From NCBI GenBank assembly GCA_964532175.1, contig CAZHGP010000001.1:21046-85045 (forward strand): DNA of 64,000 nt. The letters run 5' to 3'. The DNA is from an uncultured Nitrososphaeria archaeon. Lineage in GTDB: Archaea > Thermoproteota > Nitrososphaeria_A > Caldarchaeales > JAVZCJ01. The position numbers and the translations under genes were made by a program. Below are positions 4,831-34,335 of the stretch, in pieces. The notes below the pieces were generated by a model. It had not been told where the DNA came from. It made no database searches and was given only the letters and a program-made list of their open reading frames with translations. The stretch's first letter is position 1. Each line of letters begins with the position of its first letter.

Positions 4831-5595
4831 CTAACATGAAAGTATCGGGGAAAGTAGCCTTCTTTGATATTCAATAGTATTCTTTGCAATATTATTTGAA
4901 GCATTGTAATGTTTATTTGTTATCAATCCGCATTTTTCACAAATGAAAAAGCTATTTTTCCCTTTCCCAATCTTTCCAAAGCTTCCACATTTATAACATT
5001 TTATTGTAGTACAATCAGCATTTATTAGAATTTGTTTTAGATTTATTTGATTTTTATTGAATGTTGGCAGATATGTTAAAATTTTCATAGAATTATTCCA
5101 TAGGCTTTTTTCAAATGTTCTTTTTACAATTTTTCTTAACCATTCTGCATTTTTCTTATTTGTTCCTTTGCTATTATTTCCAGCTTCATAGTTTTTAAGT
5201 TCTTCAAATGAAATTATTGCTATTTCACAATTATATTGTTTAATACTTTCTAATGCAATATCAATAAGCATTTTTGAAATTTTCTCTACCCAATCTTTAT
5301 TTTGCCTCCTTATTCTTGCATTTATTCTTTGATACAATTCATTGTATTTAACTGAATTTCTATGAATTTCTTGTAATCTTTGTTTTTCTAATTCTTGAAA
5401 TATATGAGATTTAATCTTCGGTAGAAACCTTGTTTTCATTGGTTTTATTAAATTCTCTCTAATATTCCATATCCATATCGCATATGCAACTCCATATTTT
5501 GAATTTAGATCAACTCCGATTACTGAAATTCTTTGAAATTTTTCGAATTCTTCTTTGGTCAAAATTTCAATATTTTTCTTTAATGTTATATGCAA
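4831..5595 (-). pseudogene. tnpB: TnpB (IS200/IS605 OrfB) C-terminal part, covering the RuvC-like motifs and zinc finger; frameshifted relative to the N-terminal part
   Basis: RuvC-I is IGVDLN and RuvC-II is ISFEEL. The zinc finger is CYKCGSFG…CEKCG. In the RuvC-III position the sequence reads NKHYNASNNIAKN rather than DxDxNAAxNI, so the catalytic Asp is replaced. The upstream N-terminal ORF is in a different frame. Confidence 0.7.
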
Positions 5596-5605
5596 TCTCC
5601 AATGT

Positions 5606-6022
5606 TTATTTTTGGATTTTTTCTTTTCTTCTATGATGCCCTTTTAAATAAATTGGTGGTAAAACCATAGCCATCGTTGGTTTTGCACCATTTTCAATTT
5701 CTTTCTTTAGATATCTCATGTCTTCCTCAAAGATTTTTAATGAAATTCTATGGTATTTCTTTTCAGGATCTGTTATATATACTGTATTACTATCAAAATC
5801 GATGCTAAAACCAGTATTAAAGACAATTGGATGAAACATTGGAATTTCAAAGTTATTAAATTGTTTTAAAGATACTTTATAAGTTGCTGGAATTTCGAGG
5901 TTACCAATATTTATTCCTCTTCTTTTTTGAATTACTGAATACCTCCATATTGCTAATAGTTTTTCGATTTCTTCTAAATTTTCATTATTTATTCTTAATT
6001 TTATTGTTTTGTTTATTTCCAT
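5606..6022 (-). pseudogene. tnpB: TnpB N-terminal part (OrfB N-terminal domain), separated from the C-terminal part by a frameshift
   Basis: MEINKTIKLRINNENLEEIEKLLAIWRYSV is a typical TnpB N-terminus. The ORF stops 10 nt before the downstream ORF, which is in another frame. Confidence 0.65.
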
Positions 6023-28205: not shown

Positions 28206-28640
28206 ATGATGAGTATGAGTTCGGATGATGTGTTTGAAGCGATTTCTCATCCATTGCGAGTTGAGATTATAAAGGTGTTGGCTAAAGGACCCAGACGTTT
28301 TGCTGATATTAAGAGGGAGCTAAGGATTGAGAGTAGCGGCCTTTTGGATTTTCATTTAAAAAAGCTGGACAATCTAATTTCAATAAATGAGGAAAGCCTC
28401 TACGTTTTAAACGAGAGAGGTTTCACTGCACTTCAAGCTATTGAAGCCTTATCCAAATATGGCTGGCAGAAAAGAGCATTTTACATAAATCTCTTGTTTT
28501 CCATCTTGATGAACATTTACATCATGCTAACAATGGTGGAATGGTTTCCATTCGTGCTGGCCATATCTGCAGCGTGGATGGTTTTTTATAGTTACTGGAC
28601 ATTTATTAGAAGGCATGTATCTCTTAAGCTTAGATCTTGA
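28206..28640 (+). CDS. ArsR-family wHTH regulator fused to C-terminal transmembrane helices
   Basis: DVFEAISHPLRVEIIKVLAKGPRRFADIKREL is the ArsR HTH. The C-terminus has two hydrophobic helices (INLLFSILMNIYIMLTMV, FPFVLAISAAWMVFY). The gene is much more GC-rich, with G/C-ending codons, than its neighbours. Confidence 0.55.
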   Translation: MMSMSSDDVFEAISHPLRVEIIKVLAKGPRRFADIKRELRIESSGLLDFHLKKLDNLISINEESLYVLNERGFTALQAIEALSKYGWQKRAFYINLLFSILMNIYIMLTMVEWFPFVLAISAAWMVFYSYWTFIRRHVSLKLRS

Positions 28641-29088: not shown

Positions 29089-29577
29089 CTAGTTTTTTCT
29101 TATATATTCTAAATCTTCATTTTTTGTAAGTACTCTTATTTCTCCATTAAAATATAGAACTCTTAAAATTTTGTCTTTTTTATAATATTCAATGATAGCA
29201 TCTGATTTTGATATGGTTTTTGTTACTTTTGGTTCGATTAATTCTTTTGCAATTTCAGCTTCATTTTCTTCATGCTCAAAGATTTTAAAATCGCATCCAT
29301 AATCTCTTATTAGCCATTTCCCTTTTGATAATTCAGAATACTCAGTATCTATGCTTATATTTCTTATTGATGGATCTGATGGATTTATTGTTGGCGATAT
29401 AGGATATCCAAAACCTTTTCTTTCTTCAAAACCTACCGACCATGAGCCATTCTTTAGTATCATATTTAAGCCTCCTATTTCAGCTTTCCAATCTCTTTCA
29501 TAAATTACTTCTACTCTACGAGTTCCCAGTCTTATAGGTTTCTCTATCGTATCTCCATTTCCTATTCTTCTTCTCAT
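29089..29577 (-). CDS. Hypothetical protein
   Basis: ORF only. Confidence 0.3.
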   Translation of the reverse strand: MRRRIGNGDTIEKPIRLGTRRVEVIYERDWKAEIGGLNMILKNGSWSVGFEERKGFGYPISPTINPSDPSIRNISIDTEYSELSKGKWLIRDYGCDFKIFEHEENEAEIAKELIEPKVTKTISKSDAIIEYYKKDKILRVLYFNGEIRVLTKNEDLEYIRKN

Positions 29578-29668: not shown

Positions 29669-31087
29669 ATGTTTAGGAAAATGGTACTATATCTATATAA
29701 TACTTTATCAAGAAAAATTGAAGAATTTAAGCCACTTAAAGATAATATAATTACTATTTATTCTTGTGGTCCAACAGTTTATGATTCGCCACATATTGGA
29801 CATGGAAGACATGAAATAATTATGGATTCTTTTACAAGATTTTTAGAATATATTGGTTATGAAGTTAGATATGTTGAAAATATTACAGATGTGGATGATA
29901 AAATTATTGCAAAAGCAGAGAAAATGGGCTTAACTCCAGGAGAAGTAGCTTTAATTTTCACATTGGATTATTTTGAGCAAATGGAAAAATTAGGTATTAG
30001 AAGAGCTTGGAGACATCCTCAAGCAACAAATCACATTCAAGAAATGATTGAAGTAATAAAAAGTTTGATTGAAAAAGGGTATGCATATGAAGTTGATGGA
30101 GATGTGTATTTCTCAGTTAATAAATTTAAAGAATATGGAAAATTATCTAAGCAAGATATAAATGCTTTAAGAAAAGGTGCTAGAGTAGAAATTGATGAAA
30201 GGAAAAAAGATCCAATAGATTTTGCTTTATGGAAGAAATCTAAACCTAATGAGCCTGCATGGACAAGTCCATGGGGAATGGGTAGACCCGGCTGGCATAT
30301 AGAATGCACAGTGATGTCTATTAAATATTTGGGAGAGACTATTGATATTCATGCAGGTGGTGAGGAACTCATTTTTCCACATCATGAGAATGAAATTGCA
30401 CAAAGTGAAGCATTCACTGGAAAACCTTTTGTAAGATATTGGATGCATCATGGATTAATAACAATAAAAGCAGAAAAAATGGCTAAATCTATTGGAAATG
30501 TTATCCTTATAAGCGATTTATTAGAACGTTATGATGCAGATGCTTTTAGATATTTTGTGCTATCTGCTCATTATAGAAATCCATTAGAATATTCGGAAGA
30601 ATCAATGATAGCAGCTCAAAATACAATAAATAATGTAAGAAGAGCAATAAAAAAAATTGAATATGCTTTATCTTATCCTTCTAAGGAAATAAAAGAGAAA
30701 ATCAATATAGAAATTGAAAAATTTAAAGAAGAAATTATTAAAGAACTTTCTTATGATTTTAATACTCCAAAAGCTTTAGCTTTACTTATAGAATTAACTT
30801 ATAAAATAGCAGATAATGCTAATAAAATAGATTCTGAAAATTTAAAAGAATATTTAAAAATTATTAAAGAATTATGGAATGCACTTGGTTTCTTTCAAGA
30901 GAAAAAATCGGATAAAAAAGAAATTCTTATAGAAGATTTATTAAAAATTATATTAGAAATTAGAGAAATTGAAAGAGAAAAGAAAAATTATGAATTATCA
31001 GATTCTATAAGAGAAAAATTAAGGAAATTGGGTATTGAAATAGAAGATACTCCATATGGTACTTTCTGGTTTTTAAGTAGGAGCTAA
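29669..31087 (+). CDS. cysS: Cysteinyl-tRNA synthetase
   Basis: HIGH motif (PHIGHGR), KMSKS motif (KMAKSIGN). 472 aa. Confidence 0.85.
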   Translation: MFRKMVLYLYNTLSRKIEEFKPLKDNIITIYSCGPTVYDSPHIGHGRHEIIMDSFTRFLEYIGYEVRYVENITDVDDKIIAKAEKMGLTPGEVALIFTLDYFEQMEKLGIRRAWRHPQATNHIQEMIEVIKSLIEKGYAYEVDGDVYFSVNKFKEYGKLSKQDINALRKGARVEIDERKKDPIDFALWKKSKPNEPAWTSPWGMGRPGWHIECTVMSIKYLGETIDIHAGGEELIFPHHENEIAQSEAFTGKPFVRYWMHHGLITIKAEKMAKSIGNVILISDLLERYDADAFRYFVLSAHYRNPLEYSEESMIAAQNTINNVRRAIKKIEYALSYPSKEIKEKINIEIEKFKEEIIKELSYDFNTPKALALLIELTYKIADNANKIDSENLKEYLKIIKELWNALGFFQEKKSDKKEILIEDLLKIILEIREIEREKKNYELSDSIREKLRKLGIEIEDTPYGTFWFLSRS

Positions 31088-31089
31088 AA

Positions 31090-32733
31090 ATGTTCAATGA
31101 TAAATTTAAAGATTTAATCGATATAGCTCTTAAAGCATCTGAAAAAATTATTGATAAAAATCTTATAGTAGCATTATGTCTTTATGGCTCACATGTAAGT
31201 GGATATGCTTCTCCTGAAAGTGATTTGGATGTTATTTTAATTGCTAAAAATTTTAATCAAAAAATAAAGTATTTTTACATAAGAGATTTTACTCCAATTG
31301 TTTCAATTTTAGTTATTGATGAAAAATTATTTGAACAAGATGTTGAACAAGCATATCTTGGAGAATTTGTTGCTGGCAGATTATTCACTCCATATTATAT
31401 TATTTATGGAAAAGAATATATAAATGAAATGGATTTAAGATTAAAAAGAAGAACAATCCTTGAACTTACAGAAAACTTAATTTTAGAAAGAAAGCTTTTA
31501 TCAACAGAATTATTAATAAAACCAGAATATTTCCTTTTTGAAAAACTTAGACGTAGAGCAGCTGCATACCCTCCAGCAAAATATAGTTATTTAAAAATTC
31601 TTTATGGAATAAATGGTGAAAAAAATTTAGAATTTATGTTAAATGGATTTAGAATAGCTTTAGATAAATTAGTTTCAGAAAAATTATTTGAAAAAATAAA
31701 TAATTTTTATTCTCCTAAAAAAGAATTAGTTTTAAAAATGCTAAAAGATTTAAAAACTCCAGTAAAAGTTATGGAAGAAGGTGAAAGAATAATTAAAATG
31801 TATTTAACACATGGTTTTGCAGGTAGATTAAATCCAAAGCTTATAATTGAAGAAGCATATTCTAAAATTAAAAGAAGTATTAAAATTGGATTTGAGAAAG
31901 ACTTGCCTGATCCAGAAAATTATTTATTCATTAATACTAGTTTAGGCTTTCAACCAGCTGGAATAGAATGGTCTATAACAGAATTTGTTAATAAATTTTA
32001 TGGAATAAGTAAAAAAGATTTTAAAATAGAAAAAATTGGTTCTTTATTCAATTCAACTTATTTATTGAATATTCCAATTAAGAATAAAAAAATATTTATT
32101 AAAAAATATTTGAATTGGACAGATTTTAAATGGATTGTAGCATGGATGTGGACAATAGGTGTTAGAAATTTTGATATTCTTGCTAGTGATAGAATGTCTA
32201 ATGAGATTCATTTTATTAATACTCTTAAAAAAGAAAGGTTTAATGTTCCAAATATACTTCATATTAATTGGAAAAGAAAGCTTTTATTTGAAGAATATAT
32301 TCCAGGTATAGATTTATTATCTTTATGGAAAAATTATGAAAAAAATTCAAAAGAATGTGAAGAAGCAGCATTTAAAACTGGTATAAATATTGCTAAAGTA
32401 CACAAATTAAATATTGCTATTGGAGATTGTAAAGCTGAAAATTTCTTATTAAGTAATAATGAAATATATTTAACAGATTTAGAACAAGCAAAATTTAATG
32501 GTGATAAAGCATGGGATTTAGCTGAAATGCTTTTTTATCCAGGGCATTATTTAGGAATTAAAAAAAGCATAATTTTTGCTTCAAGCTTAATAGATGGATA
32601 TTTAAAAGAAGGGGATAAAGAAATATTAGCTTCATCAATGAAATTAAGTTATAGTAGATTATTAGTTCCTTGGACTCCTCCTTGGATTATAAAAGAAGTA
32701 CAAAAAATTGTTTATGAAAAAATTAAAAAATAG
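31090..32733 (+). CDS. Two-domain protein: N-terminal Pol-beta-type minimal nucleotidyltransferase plus C-terminal APH/RIO/Kdo-like kinase fold
   Basis: The nucleotidyltransferase motif is LYGSHVSGYASPESDLDV (GS…D-x-D). The C-terminus has IGDCKAENFLL (catalytic-loop-like D…N), LTDLEQA (DFG-like) and WDLAEML. The gene starts 3 nt after the cysS stop. Confidence 0.4.
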   Translation: MFNDKFKDLIDIALKASEKIIDKNLIVALCLYGSHVSGYASPESDLDVILIAKNFNQKIKYFYIRDFTPIVSILVIDEKLFEQDVEQAYLGEFVAGRLFTPYYIIYGKEYINEMDLRLKRRTILELTENLILERKLLSTELLIKPEYFLFEKLRRRAAAYPPAKYSYLKILYGINGEKNLEFMLNGFRIALDKLVSEKLFEKINNFYSPKKELVLKMLKDLKTPVKVMEEGERIIKMYLTHGFAGRLNPKLIIEEAYSKIKRSIKIGFEKDLPDPENYLFINTSLGFQPAGIEWSITEFVNKFYGISKKDFKIEKIGSLFNSTYLLNIPIKNKKIFIKKYLNWTDFKWIVAWMWTIGVRNFDILASDRMSNEIHFINTLKKERFNVPNILHINWKRKLLFEEYIPGIDLLSLWKNYEKNSKECEEAAFKTGINIAKVHKLNIAIGDCKAENFLLSNNEIYLTDLEQAKFNGDKAWDLAEMLFYPGHYLGIKKSIIFASSLIDGYLKEGDKEILASSMKLSYSRLLVPWTPPWIIKEVQKIVYEKIKK

Positions 32734-32785: not shown

Positions 32786-33100
32786 ATGAATGGATTAATT
32801 GAAGCATTAGCAGAAATTCTTTCTATTCCACAAACAACAATTTTATTAATAATTTTCTTCTTTGTAGGATTATTAATAGGATATGCTTTAGCAAAATTAT
32901 TAAAAGTTTTATTAATACTTTTTATAGCATTTTTCATTGCTTCTTATTTTGGAATAATAAGATTGAATATAATAGATTTTAAAACAATAATTGAAAAATA
33001 TGGTATGGAAATTGCTTCTATTGCAGCAGCTCTTTTATCATCAACAGTTTTTGTAATTGGTGCAATCATAGGTTTTTTAATAGGAATATTTAAATCTTAA
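32786..33100 (+). CDS. Small membrane protein (3 TM helices)
   Basis: Hydrophobic throughout. Confidence 0.35.
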   Translation: MNGLIEALAEILSIPQTTILLIIFFFVGLLIGYALAKLLKVLLILFIAFFIASYFGIIRLNIIDFKTIIEKYGMEIASIAAALLSSTVFVIGAIIGFLIGIFKS

Positions 33101-33111
33101 AATGATAAAAA

Positions 33112-33639
33112 ATGAAAAAATTTTTAAAAATTGTTCCATTAGAAAATGAATTAAAAAATTTATGTAATATTATTTCTGAAAAAATTAAAGAAATATATTT
33201 AATGGAAAATAAAATAGAATATGTTGATATAGCTATTCCAGATTTTTCTTATAATAAAAATAGAAAACAATACAATGCTTTTTTAATACTATCTTCTTTT
33301 TCAAATATTTTTTCTGAATATACTCTTTTTATTACAAATAAAGATATTTATGTTCCTGGAATGAATTTCATTTTCGGGCTTGCATGGAAAAAATTAGCAA
33401 TAATTTCTATTGCACGACTTTTACCTACTTTTTATGAAGAAAAAATGGATTATAATATTTTTGTTTCTAGAGTTATTAAAGAAGCAATTCATGAAATAGG
33501 ACATTTATTAGGATTATCTCATTGCTCAAATTCTAAATGTGTTATGCATTTTAGTAATTCAATATATGATACTGATTATAAAAATGAAAAACCATGTGAA
33601 AAATGTTTTTCTATTTTAAAAAATAAAGGAATTATTTAA
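33112..33639 (+). CDS. amzA: Archaemetzincin (zinc metallopeptidase)
   Basis: HEIGHLLGLSHCSNSKCVMHF … CEKC matches HExxHxxGxxHCxxxxCxM … CxxC. Confidence 0.8.
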   Translation: MKKFLKIVPLENELKNLCNIISEKIKEIYLMENKIEYVDIAIPDFSYNKNRKQYNAFLILSSFSNIFSEYTLFITNKDIYVPGMNFIFGLAWKKLAIISIARLLPTFYEEKMDYNIFVSRVIKEAIHEIGHLLGLSHCSNSKCVMHFSNSIYDTDYKNEKPCEKCFSILKNKGII

Positions 33640-33642
33640 AAA

Positions 33643-34335
33643 ATGTTTTCTAAAGAAAAATTAATTAAATTAAATTTATCTGGAATAGAAATTTCATTAA
33701 AAATAAATAAGCATGTATATTTCCCATCAAAAGTATCTTATTTAATAGCAAAAAATCTTATAATAAATAAGAATGATATAGTTTTAGATATTGGAACTGG
33801 AATAGGTATTCTTGCAATAATTGCTTCTAAATTAGGTGCTAAGAAAGTTTTTGCTATAGAAATTTCTTTTAAAGCTTTAAAAAATGCTAAAGAAAATATT
33901 ATTCTTAATAATATATCCAATATAGAATTAATAAATGGCTCATTATATAATCCATTAAAGAAAAAAGAATTTTTTGATTTAATCATGTGCAATCCACCTA
34001 TGACTCCTTCTCCTAAACCTGTTTCAATATATACTTGGGGTGGGTATGATGGTAGGAAAATTCTTGATGAAGTTATAAAAAATGCAAGTTATTATTTAAA
34101 AAAGAATGGTAGATTAATTATTCCAACAATATCTGTTTGTAATATTGAAAAAACAAAGATTATGATTGAAAAATTAAATTTTTCTTATAGAATAATTGCA
34201 GAAGATACATTCCCATTTAGTAAACTTATGATAAAATTAATTGATCATATAAAATCTCTTCCTGGAAGTGAAATAGTATATAAAAATAATATTCCATATT
34301 TTAAAGCAATTGTTTTTGAAGCAATTAAAAATTGA
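33643..34335 (+). CDS. Class I SAM-dependent methyltransferase, HemK/Mtq2-like (N5-glutamine MTase family)
   Basis: SAM motif I VLDIGTGIGILAI and the NPPM/NPPY-type motif MCNPPMTP. Confidence 0.55.
   Translation: MFSKEKLIKLNLSGIEISLKINKHVYFPSKVSYLIAKNLIINKNDIVLDIGTGIGILAIIASKLGAKKVFAIEISFKALKNAKENIILNNISNIELINGSLYNPLKKKEFFDLIMCNPPMTPSPKPVSIYTWGGYDGRKILDEVIKNASYYLKKNGRLIIPTISVCNIEKTKIMIEKLNFSYRIIAEDTFPFSKLMIKLIDHIKSLPGSEIVYKNNIPYFKAIVFEAIKN

Follow-up and report, generated by a model that had tools for sequence, protein, structure and literature searches.

The DNA analyzed here is a stretch of 64,000 nucleotides from an uncultured Nitrososphaeria archaeon (hereafter the window). It carries a complete open reading frame at positions 31090-32733 of the + strand (ATG start, 547 codons plus a stop codon), and the predicted structure of its product joins two modules of defined fold, a Pol-beta-type nucleotidyltransferase and a Bud32-like kinase, in a single rigid polypeptide. 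Although both folds are well known, their combination is without a characterized member. Literature searches on nucleotidyltransferase–kinase fusions found no description of the family in the library searched, as the original prediction had suspected.

The explanation that we favor, with a probability of roughly 35%, is that the protein is a bifunctional enzyme whose modules act consecutively (phosphorylation, then nucleotidylation) on one and the same non-RNA substrate. In the first step, the kinase would transfer a phosphate to a hydroxyl of this substrate; the nucleotidyltransferase would then add an NMP to that phosphate to give an NDP-activated intermediate, which is the chemistry of Tam41. 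Alternatively, the second step could be the nucleotidylation of another hydroxyl, which is the chemistry of the ANT enzymes.

The family is confined to archaea of which no pure culture has ever been obtained. In such lineages, new biochemistry is mainly reached through conserved "dark matter" proteins. To our knowledge, Tam41 and the antibiotic nucleotidyltransferases are the few enzymes with a Pol-beta fold whose nucleotidylation targets are metabolites or lipids, and Bud32-like kinases are known from KEOPS only. Given the scarcity of both kinds of enzyme, a fused family would either bring activation chemistry of the Tam41 type into the archaea or show that Bud32-type kinases have another role in the cell besides the known one.

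Two modules in one polypeptide

The reading frame is not a product of chance, because it runs for 547 codons at a G+C content of ∼25% and has 88 full-length homologues with E values down to 1e-46. The G+C content is ∼25% throughout the window, and the composition of the fusion gene is native. The original prediction described this reading frame correctly, and the four motifs that it quoted are all present: LYGSHVSGYASPESDLDVILIAK at aa 31-53, IGDCKAENFLL at aa 444-454, LTDLEQA at aa 461-467, and WDLAEML at aa 475-481. When domains were assigned by profile HMM, both halves scored above Pfam gathering cut-offs.

The core of the nucleotidyltransferase occupies aa 1-107 (31090-31410, + strand). 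Pfam NTP_transf_2 matches aa 18-66 with 23.6 bits (gathering cut-off 21), and the Pol-beta signature is found as Y32-G33-S34, D45-L-D47, and D77, the last of which ends strand 71-77 in the strand–helix pattern of the model. Conservation counts mark the same catalytic residues on the + strand, namely G33-S34 (31186-31191), D45-x-D47 (31222-31230), and D77 (31318-31320), together with a family-invariant D84 (31339-31341). The core is followed by a helical and winged-helix extension (aa 108-275; 31411-31914, + strand), which carries the family-specific motifs Y-K-K-R (118-121), PEYFLFEKLRRRAxxYPPxxYSY (145-167), and YxxHGxAGR (238-246). Among 18 N-terminal halves from the family, 13 matched Pfam Polbeta and 12 matched NTP_transf_2, and no Pfam model covered aa 67-275 in any of them. 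NCBIfam models gave weak matches to the N-terminus (MntA, ANT(9), and ANT(3'')). Searches of PDB sequences with the whole protein and with a profile of the N-terminal half returned nothing significant, the sole resemblance being the generic G-S/D-x-D motif (MNT, AadA, TUTase).

This half had been called a minimal nucleotidyltransferase (MNT). Its place in the Pol-beta superfamily is confirmed, but the word "minimal" does not fit. An MNT is a single domain of ∼100-150 aa that serves as the antitoxin of a type VII toxin–antitoxin system and is paired with a HEPN toxin gene. The module described here measures ∼275 aa, scores 20.1 against the MntA model NF047752 (cut-off 60), and has no HEPN neighbor at any surveyed locus. 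"Tam41/ANT-like with winged helix" should replace the earlier term.

The predicted structure was obtained with AlphaFold2 from a 27-sequence family alignment. The model is confident (mean pLDDT 87.8, pTM 0.85), with values below 70 only at aa ∼220-270 and ∼340-360, and so high a pTM in a two-module protein implies a defined orientation between the modules. When the N-terminal half was compared with known structures by Foldseek, the best E values belonged to KNTase/ANT(4') (7e-7) and the best TM-scores to Tam41 (0.44/0.46, thus <0.5; E 3e-6), whereas RNA-specific TUTases were found with a probability of only 0.38. The MNT antitoxins and DrrA are also among its structural neighbors. Judged from the model, the closest relatives of aa 1-275 are enzymes that mostly nucleotidylate small molecules or lipids (Tam41, KNTase/ANT(4'), LinB). 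The fact that these relatives mostly modify small molecules or a lipid phosphate, and that RNA nucleotidyltransferases are distant, argues for consecutive action on a non-RNA substrate.

The kinase half, which is assigned by profile, fold, and conserved catalytic residues, spans aa 276-547 (31915-32730, + strand). It holds the complete eukaryotic-like set of catalytic residues on the + strand: the beta-3 Lys K338 (32101-32103), the helix-C Glu E372 (32203-32205), D446 and N451 of the D446-C-K-A-E-N451 loop (32425-32442), and the metal-binding D463 (32476-32478). These are followed by a helix with W475-D476. As far as sequence can tell, the catalytic apparatus of the window kinase is complete. 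The Pfam Kdo/WaaP kinase model (PF06293) matches aa 347-471 with 25.2 bits (gathering cut-off 21.3), or with 27.2 bits when the C-terminal half is searched alone; this match is marginal and the Pfam family is broad. The RIO1, Pkinase, and WaaY models of Pfam remain below their thresholds. The best NCBIfam kinase match is archaeal Bud32 (TIGR03724, E 6e-13), whose 48.8 bits fall far under the equivalog cut-off of 125, and the remaining Bud32 models (NF0114xx) reach 17-39 bits against cut-offs of 174-447. In the model, the domain has the minimal Bud32-type fold and, like Bud32, is without an activation segment and a substrate-binding lobe; extra C-terminal helices are seen at aa 490-546. The earlier assignment of an APH/RIO/Kdo-like kinase was therefore right about the kinase and about the Kdo model, but "Bud32-like" is a sharper name and the domain extends over ∼270 aa rather than ∼200.

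The kinase can be read in favor of a small-molecule or lipid substrate, since its fold family includes many kinases that act on hydroxyl groups of sugars, lipids, and antibiotics, and since Kdo/WaaP is the one Pfam kinase model whose threshold is passed. Against this stands Bud32 itself, the nearest kinase relative, which is a tRNA-dependent ATPase and protein kinase and not a small-molecule kinase. Likewise, the winged helix and the conserved basic residues K119, K152, R154-156, and R246 would also suit a nucleic-acid substrate. These features point to an alternative in which the enzyme is directed at RNA, and its Bud32-like domain is an RNA kinase, or an ATPase stimulated by RNA, that gates or complements nucleotide addition to tRNA or rRNA. 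Precedents on the RNA side are Bud32 in KEOPS and the archaeal tRNA 2'-kinase ArkI, and the arrangement would be analogous to the Kae1–Bud32 fusion, the nucleotidyltransferase taking the position of Kae1. We consider this explanation to be on the unlikely side.

The sequence of the catalytic loop raises a second alternative. Its consensus in the family is G-D-C-K-P-x-N, which is of the Ser/Thr-kinase type (D-x-K-x-x-N), and the form D-x-K-P/A-E-N agrees with the Ser/Thr protein-kinase consensus. The protein could thus be a regulator whose kinase phosphorylates, and whose nucleotidyltransferase AMPylates, a protein target, perhaps one tied to the metalloprotease-like neighbors described below. 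AMPylation of proteins has precedents in MNT, which acts on HEPN, and in GlnE, which acts on glutamine synthetase, and the presence of MNT antitoxins and DrrA among the structural neighbors is in keeping with such an activity. However, neither HEPN nor another known target partner accompanies the gene, the lack of an activation segment and a substrate-binding lobe speaks against a protein substrate, and the matches to defense models are weak and at the level of motifs. We regard a protein-directed function as rather improbable.

Distribution and states of the family

The 88 homologues from a word-indexed search are nearly all 520-570 aa long, cover >90% of the query, and range in identity from 98% down to 28%. 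An exhaustive HMMER scan covering 1.84 billion cluster representatives yielded 379 matches at E<=1e-3, 249 at <=1e-10, and 142 at <=1e-30, most of them full length. These proteins form a fusion family of fixed architecture with ∼140-250 sequence clusters, each of them small (1-23 members). Searches of a 5.8-billion-protein index with profiles of the full alignment and of the N-terminal alignment added few members, but the N-terminal profile revealed a stand-alone form of the nucleotidyltransferase. The names given to members in the sources are uninformative: "hypothetical protein", "nucleotidyltransferase domain-containing protein", "Bud32/predicted nucleotidyltransferase", "Kae1-associated kinase Bud32", and "lipopolysaccharide kinase InaA family protein".

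All sources are uncultured, being Nitrososphaerota, Thaumarchaeota, Aigarchaeota, Caldarchaeales, Bathyarchaeia, or "Thermoprotei" genomes, and no named cultured ammonia oxidizer is among the members found by any search. Scanning a single genome for each GTDB species gave 55 loci (Terraquivivens, Wolframiiraptor, Caldarchaeum, Pelearchaeum, many Nitrososphaeria, Nitrososphaerales, Nitrosopumilales). The nearest relative at species level is just 49% identical to the window protein, which indicates that the window comes from an unsampled lineage of low G+C content. The family is vertically inherited in uncultured Thermoproteota (Nitrososphaeria including Caldarchaeales; Bathyarchaeia).

Conservation was counted over 209 full-length members. 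In the kinase, nearly every member retains K338 (208), E372 (208), H438 (208), D446 (202), D463 (205), E465 (206), Q466 (205), W475 (204), and D476 (208), and the counts for K448 and N451 are 190 and 186. This pattern shows strong catalytic constraint on the kinase. The corresponding counts for the nucleotidyltransferase are 175 for G33, 146 for S34, 146 for D45, 150 for D47, 176 for D/E77, and 208 for D84, and only 127 of the 209 retain G-S, D-x-D, and D/E77 together. In about one-third of the members the kinase is kept but the classical D-x-D is gone, and these losses cluster in a subgroup of the Caldarchaeales. The window protein retains every counted residue of both halves, so that the catalytic motifs of the original prediction are intact in this protein even though the D-x-D is not constant in the family. 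On account of the invariance of D84, and because Tam41 itself is reported to keep only one of three acidic residues, D84 and the conserved basic residues K119, K152, and R154-156 may mark a functional pocket.

The stand-alone nucleotidyltransferases form several clusters of complete proteins of ∼260-290 aa, which match only aa ∼1-280. Among them is a 23-member cluster that comes from Tara mesopelagic samples and is annotated "predicted nucleotidyltransferase". They keep YGS, SDYD, D84, LGEFxGRL, YKKR, and EYFLFEKLxRRAxxYPPxxYSY, and a tblastn search found no remnant of a kinase 3' of the 283-aa gene at three loci (L061-L063).

The family therefore occurs in three states, with both halves intact, with an intact kinase and a degenerate nucleotidyltransferase motif, or with the nucleotidyltransferase alone. 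These states amount to a natural dissection experiment. They also weigh against our main explanation, because loss or degeneration of either half independently of the other is not predicted if the two steps are strictly obligatory and consecutive.

Genomic context and the link to cysS

In the window, the fusion gene follows the gene for cysteinyl-tRNA synthetase, cysS (29669-31087, + strand), whose product matches Pfam tRNA-synt_1e (E 7e-128) and DALR_2. The stop codon of cysS (TAA, 31085-31087) and the ATG at 31090 are separated by two bases (AA). The spacing is as tight as originally described. A Shine-Dalgarno-like GGAG lies within the 3' end of cysS, 6 nt 5' of the fusion ATG (31080-31083, + strand), and this placement is consistent with co-transcription and translational coupling of the two genes. 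Downstream on the same strand, the next operon gene encodes a small hydrophobic protein of 104 aa (32786-33100) without a family match. It is followed in the same operon by an archaemetzincin of peptidase family M54 (33112-33639; NF033823, 168.6 bits against a cut-off of 145; Pfam Peptidase_M54, E 7e-30) and then by a HemK2/MTQ2-family protein methyltransferase (33643-34335; TIGR00537, 99.1 bits against 87). No tRNA genes were found within the window. A sigma-70 scan gave 35 sites where 44 were expected and 0 terminators, and is uninformative for AT-rich archaeal DNA.

The original prediction took the coupling to cysS as a hint of a role linked to translation or Cys metabolism. A role specific to CysRS, tRNA-Cys, or cysteine metabolism would be in keeping with the 2-nt gap and the upstream GGAG in the window, and with a similar arrangement in three contigs, where the gap is again 2 nt (L057, L058) or is replaced by an 8-nt overlap (L056). 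However, cysS is adjacent to the fusion gene only in these three contigs, whose fusion proteins are 98% or 84% identical to that of the window. A search with the window's neighbors found cysS beside the fusion gene at 0 of the 55 species-representative loci. In relatives of ∼45% identity, other genes fill the upstream slot: PmbA/TldD, encoded on the opposite strand, or a formylmethanofuran:H4MPT formyltransferase, whose gene ends on the base with which the fusion gene begins. The fusion is conserved across Nitrososphaeria, Caldarchaeales, and Bathyarchaeia, so the family is far wider than its linkage to cysS, which is confined to one lineage of close relatives. A CysRS-specific function is very improbable, the suggested connection with translation or Cys metabolism is not supported, and the adjacency is a local accident rather than a functional clue. 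In a compact genome, close coupling with a housekeeping gene says little about function unless it recurs across lineages.

Other neighbors recur within clades. At 29 Nitrososphaerales/Nitrosopumilales-type loci, an unannotated HExxH protein of ∼215-240 aa is encoded directly upstream on the same strand, and in L061-L063 its gene overlaps the family member by 29 nt. The genes downstream of the family member at these 29 loci (S24e, DUF359, Rpo7, a PIN protein, and eIF2-gamma) lie on the opposite strand. PmbA/TldD is located upstream on the opposite strand at 22 Caldarchaeales-type loci, and two tandem NTP_transf_2 proteins of ∼330-360 aa are encoded downstream on the opposite strand at 12 loci. 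At 10 Caldarchaeales-type loci as well as in the window, the HemK2/MTQ2-family methyltransferase is encoded downstream in the same orientation, with an aminotransferase and gatD after it, and in 7 of those 10 loci the methyltransferase is immediately downstream (gaps <= ∼140 nt). The window lineage has inserted the 104-aa membrane protein and the archaemetzincin between the fusion gene and the methyltransferase, and the operon from cysS to MTQ2 is a lineage-specific arrangement. The 104-aa protein is kept in close relatives, and a 36%-identical match adjoins gatD in L012. The conserved neighbors of other clades (the HExxH protein, PmbA/TldD, the tandem nucleotidyltransferases, S24e, DUF359, Rpo7, the PIN protein, eIF2-gamma, and an Lrp/AsnC regulator) were sought in the window and none is present, nor does the window contain a second Bud32-like kinase.

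The recurrence of metalloprotease-type neighbors bears on the protein-directed alternative. Each clade has a different one: the HExxH protein, whose gene overlaps the start of the gene that follows it; PmbA/TldD; and, two genes downstream in the window, the archaemetzincin. The three are mutually unrelated and the pattern may be coincidence. The HExxH protein gave no meaningful match to PDB sequences, NCBIfam, or the archaemetzincin of the window, to which it is unrelated (hhalign probability 0.6%). Clustering of all neighboring ORFs found no neighbor that is conserved across the whole family, and thus context does not point to a family-wide functional partner. The same clustering found no biosynthetic gene cluster around the fusion gene in any clade, which counts against the consecutive action that we favor.

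Comparison with known systems

The kinase resembles Bud32 of KEOPS in its minimal fold but differs by its Ser/Thr-like D-x-K-x-x-N loop and by its extra C-terminal helices. Its fusion partner also differs, being a nucleotidyltransferase where the Kae1–Bud32 fusion of M. jannaschii has Kae1. Some JGI and NCBI names imply that the fusion protein is the KEOPS Bud32 of these organisms. This identification was rejected, given the sub-threshold scores and the lack of a link to Kae1: no Kae1 (Peptidase_M22) is among the called genes of eight loci (L056-L063), and it is absent from those of the most frequent neighbor clusters that were identified, which are part of all clusters. Kdo/WaaP kinases are less close, since Bud32 scores better by both profile and structure, and archaea have no lipopolysaccharide. 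A role as a component of a known anti-phage defense system was likewise rejected, because PADLOC models gave only motif-level matches (E 1e-4 or weaker) and the gene has a conserved housekeeping context.

Tam41/TAMM41 is a CDP-diacylglycerol synthase of mitochondria and bacteria with a Pol-beta fold. The N-terminal half of the fusion shares its two-domain fold of nucleotidyltransferase and winged helix, which in Tam41 jointly bind CTP and are followed by a C-terminal membrane anchor (PMC7018664). The kinase sits in the position of this anchor, and the stand-alone forms have neither. Of the three classical acidic residues, Tam41 is reported to retain just one (PMC11646218), whereas the window protein keeps all three. 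Pfam Mmp37 gave no match when 18 N-terminal halves were searched at E values up to 10, and the Tam41 structures 7ecd and 6ig2 were not found by a profile search of PDB sequences. The likeness seen in the model is structural only, with TM-scores below 0.5, and this tempers the main explanation.

If the resemblance extended to the substrate, the Tam41-like half might be a soluble, CarS-independent cytidylyltransferase producing CDP-archaeol or some other lipid or alcohol activated with CDP, with the fused archaeol- or diacylglycerol-type kinase supplying the phosphorylated substrate. Tam41 replaces CdsA in mitochondria, which would be a parallel, and a Tam41-like enzyme that occurs only in archaea of the Nitrososphaeria type readily suggests itself as a candidate for a route without CarS. 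With such an enzyme, these archaea would have another way, or a salvage pathway, to obtain activated precursors of ether lipids. However, no member of the family was seen under a cultured ammonia oxidizer's name, although these are the organisms with the reported CarS gap, and no membrane-binding segment is evident. Regarding CarS in Thaumarchaeota, no update to the 2014 statement was found in the searched library. We consider this specific proposal a long shot.

The aminoglycoside and lincosamide nucleotidyltransferases (KNTase/ANT(4'), ANT(3'')(9)/AadA, ANT(9), LinB) superpose over ∼130-145 residues, with a large rmsd over the full alignment, and all family scores are far under the respective cut-offs. 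These enzymes belong to a resistance context, whereas the fusion gene resides in a conserved, chromosomal housekeeping context in archaea.

The logic of our main explanation is found in known fusions of a kinase and a nucleotidyltransferase. LicCA (choline kinase/cytidylyltransferase), HldE, FKP, RibF, and NadR catalyze consecutive steps, and this general precedent favors consecutive action on a non-RNA substrate by the archaeal protein. The nucleotidyltransferases of these enzymes have Rossmann-like or HIGH-motif folds rather than a Pol-beta fold, and no sequence or structural similarity of the archaeal fusion to any of them was found. LicCA has the same module order as the archaeal fusion and a kinase of the same eukaryotic-like superfamily, but the parallel with these enzymes is an analogy of logic only.

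Gene arrangement around the fusion gene in the window

In the window, the fusion gene lies in an apparent operon of five genes. These encode CysS, the fusion protein, a membrane protein, an archaemetzincin (peptidase M54; 33112-33639, + strand) and a HemK2/MTQ2-type protein methyltransferase (33643-34335, +), and they are separated by gaps of 2, 52, 11 and 3 nt. The membrane protein, a hydrophobic polypeptide of 104 aa (32786-33100, +) encoded directly 3′ of the fusion gene, has no family match. It is retained in relatives whose fusion proteins are 84-98% identical, and a 36%-identical match adjoins gatD in L012, another fusion-family locus. Just upstream of cysS are a gene for an ArsR/SmtB-type HTH protein of 144 aa with a hydrophobic C-terminal tail (28206-28640, +) and, on the − strand, a 162-aa ORF without a family match (29089-29577).

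An interchangeable slot upstream

The contig of a more distant relative (L060, 45% identity) shows that the slot upstream of the fusion gene is interchangeable, because a gene for formylmethanofuran:H4MPT formyltransferase (L060:4102-5001) sits there instead of cysS. The formyltransferase gene shares one base with the fusion gene and is coupled to its start. A large Big_1/CarboxypepD_reg-like surface protein is encoded further upstream of it, and likewise upstream of cysS in L056, the contig of a close relative.

The HExxH protein and the stand-alone nucleotidyltransferase

In 29 Nitrososphaerales/Nitrosopumilales-type loci, the fusion gene is directly preceded on its own strand by a gene for an HExxH protein (L020-L053, e.g. 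L046:475-1119; also L061:4322-5029, on the strand of the nucleotidyltransferase gene). Members of this unannotated family are ∼215-240 aa long and carry an invariant A-H-E-F-x-H-Y motif. No match to them was found in Pfam, NCBIfam or PDB, and they are unrelated to archaemetzincin.

One subfamily consists of the N-terminal, Tam41-like half alone (∼280 aa; proteins P0206, P0217, P0225 and P0281), with every nucleotidyltransferase motif intact, and includes mesopelagic sequences from Tara Oceans. On the contigs L061-L063, its gene occupies positions 5001-5852 and overlaps the HExxH gene by 29 nt, and no kinase remnant is present downstream. Among the conserved partners of the nucleotidyltransferase half, the HExxH protein is the most tightly linked. 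The metalloprotease-like gene beside the fusion gene differs by clade, encoding the HExxH protein, PmbA/TldD or archaemetzincin, and the recurrence of such neighbors may be coincidental.

Comparison of the window with Caldarchaeales loci

Twelve Caldarchaeales-type loci (L001-L004, L006-L010, L012, L017 and L019; e.g. L009:8440-9414) carry a tandem pair of NTP_transf_2 genes on the strand opposite to the fusion gene, and the 3′ end of the pair abuts or overlaps the 3′ end of the fusion gene. The pair also occurs in a further relative (L059:6652-8666, opposite strand) and is absent from the window. The two paralogues are each ∼330-360 aa long, and both have an internal NTP_transf_2 domain with the motif GSxxxxxxxxxSDIDL.

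G+C content is only 21-31% across the whole window (1-64000), and ARAGORN found no tRNA genes in these 64 kb. The top species-level match of the fusion protein is just 49% identical. The window appears to derive from a very AT-rich lineage, not yet sampled, that is related to the Caldarchaeales/Terraquivivens group. GatD from the window is 56-60% identical to Caldarchaeales GatD (70% in L010, where the match is truncated), and the order MTQ2-like methyltransferase, aminotransferase, gatD is that of Caldarchaeales.
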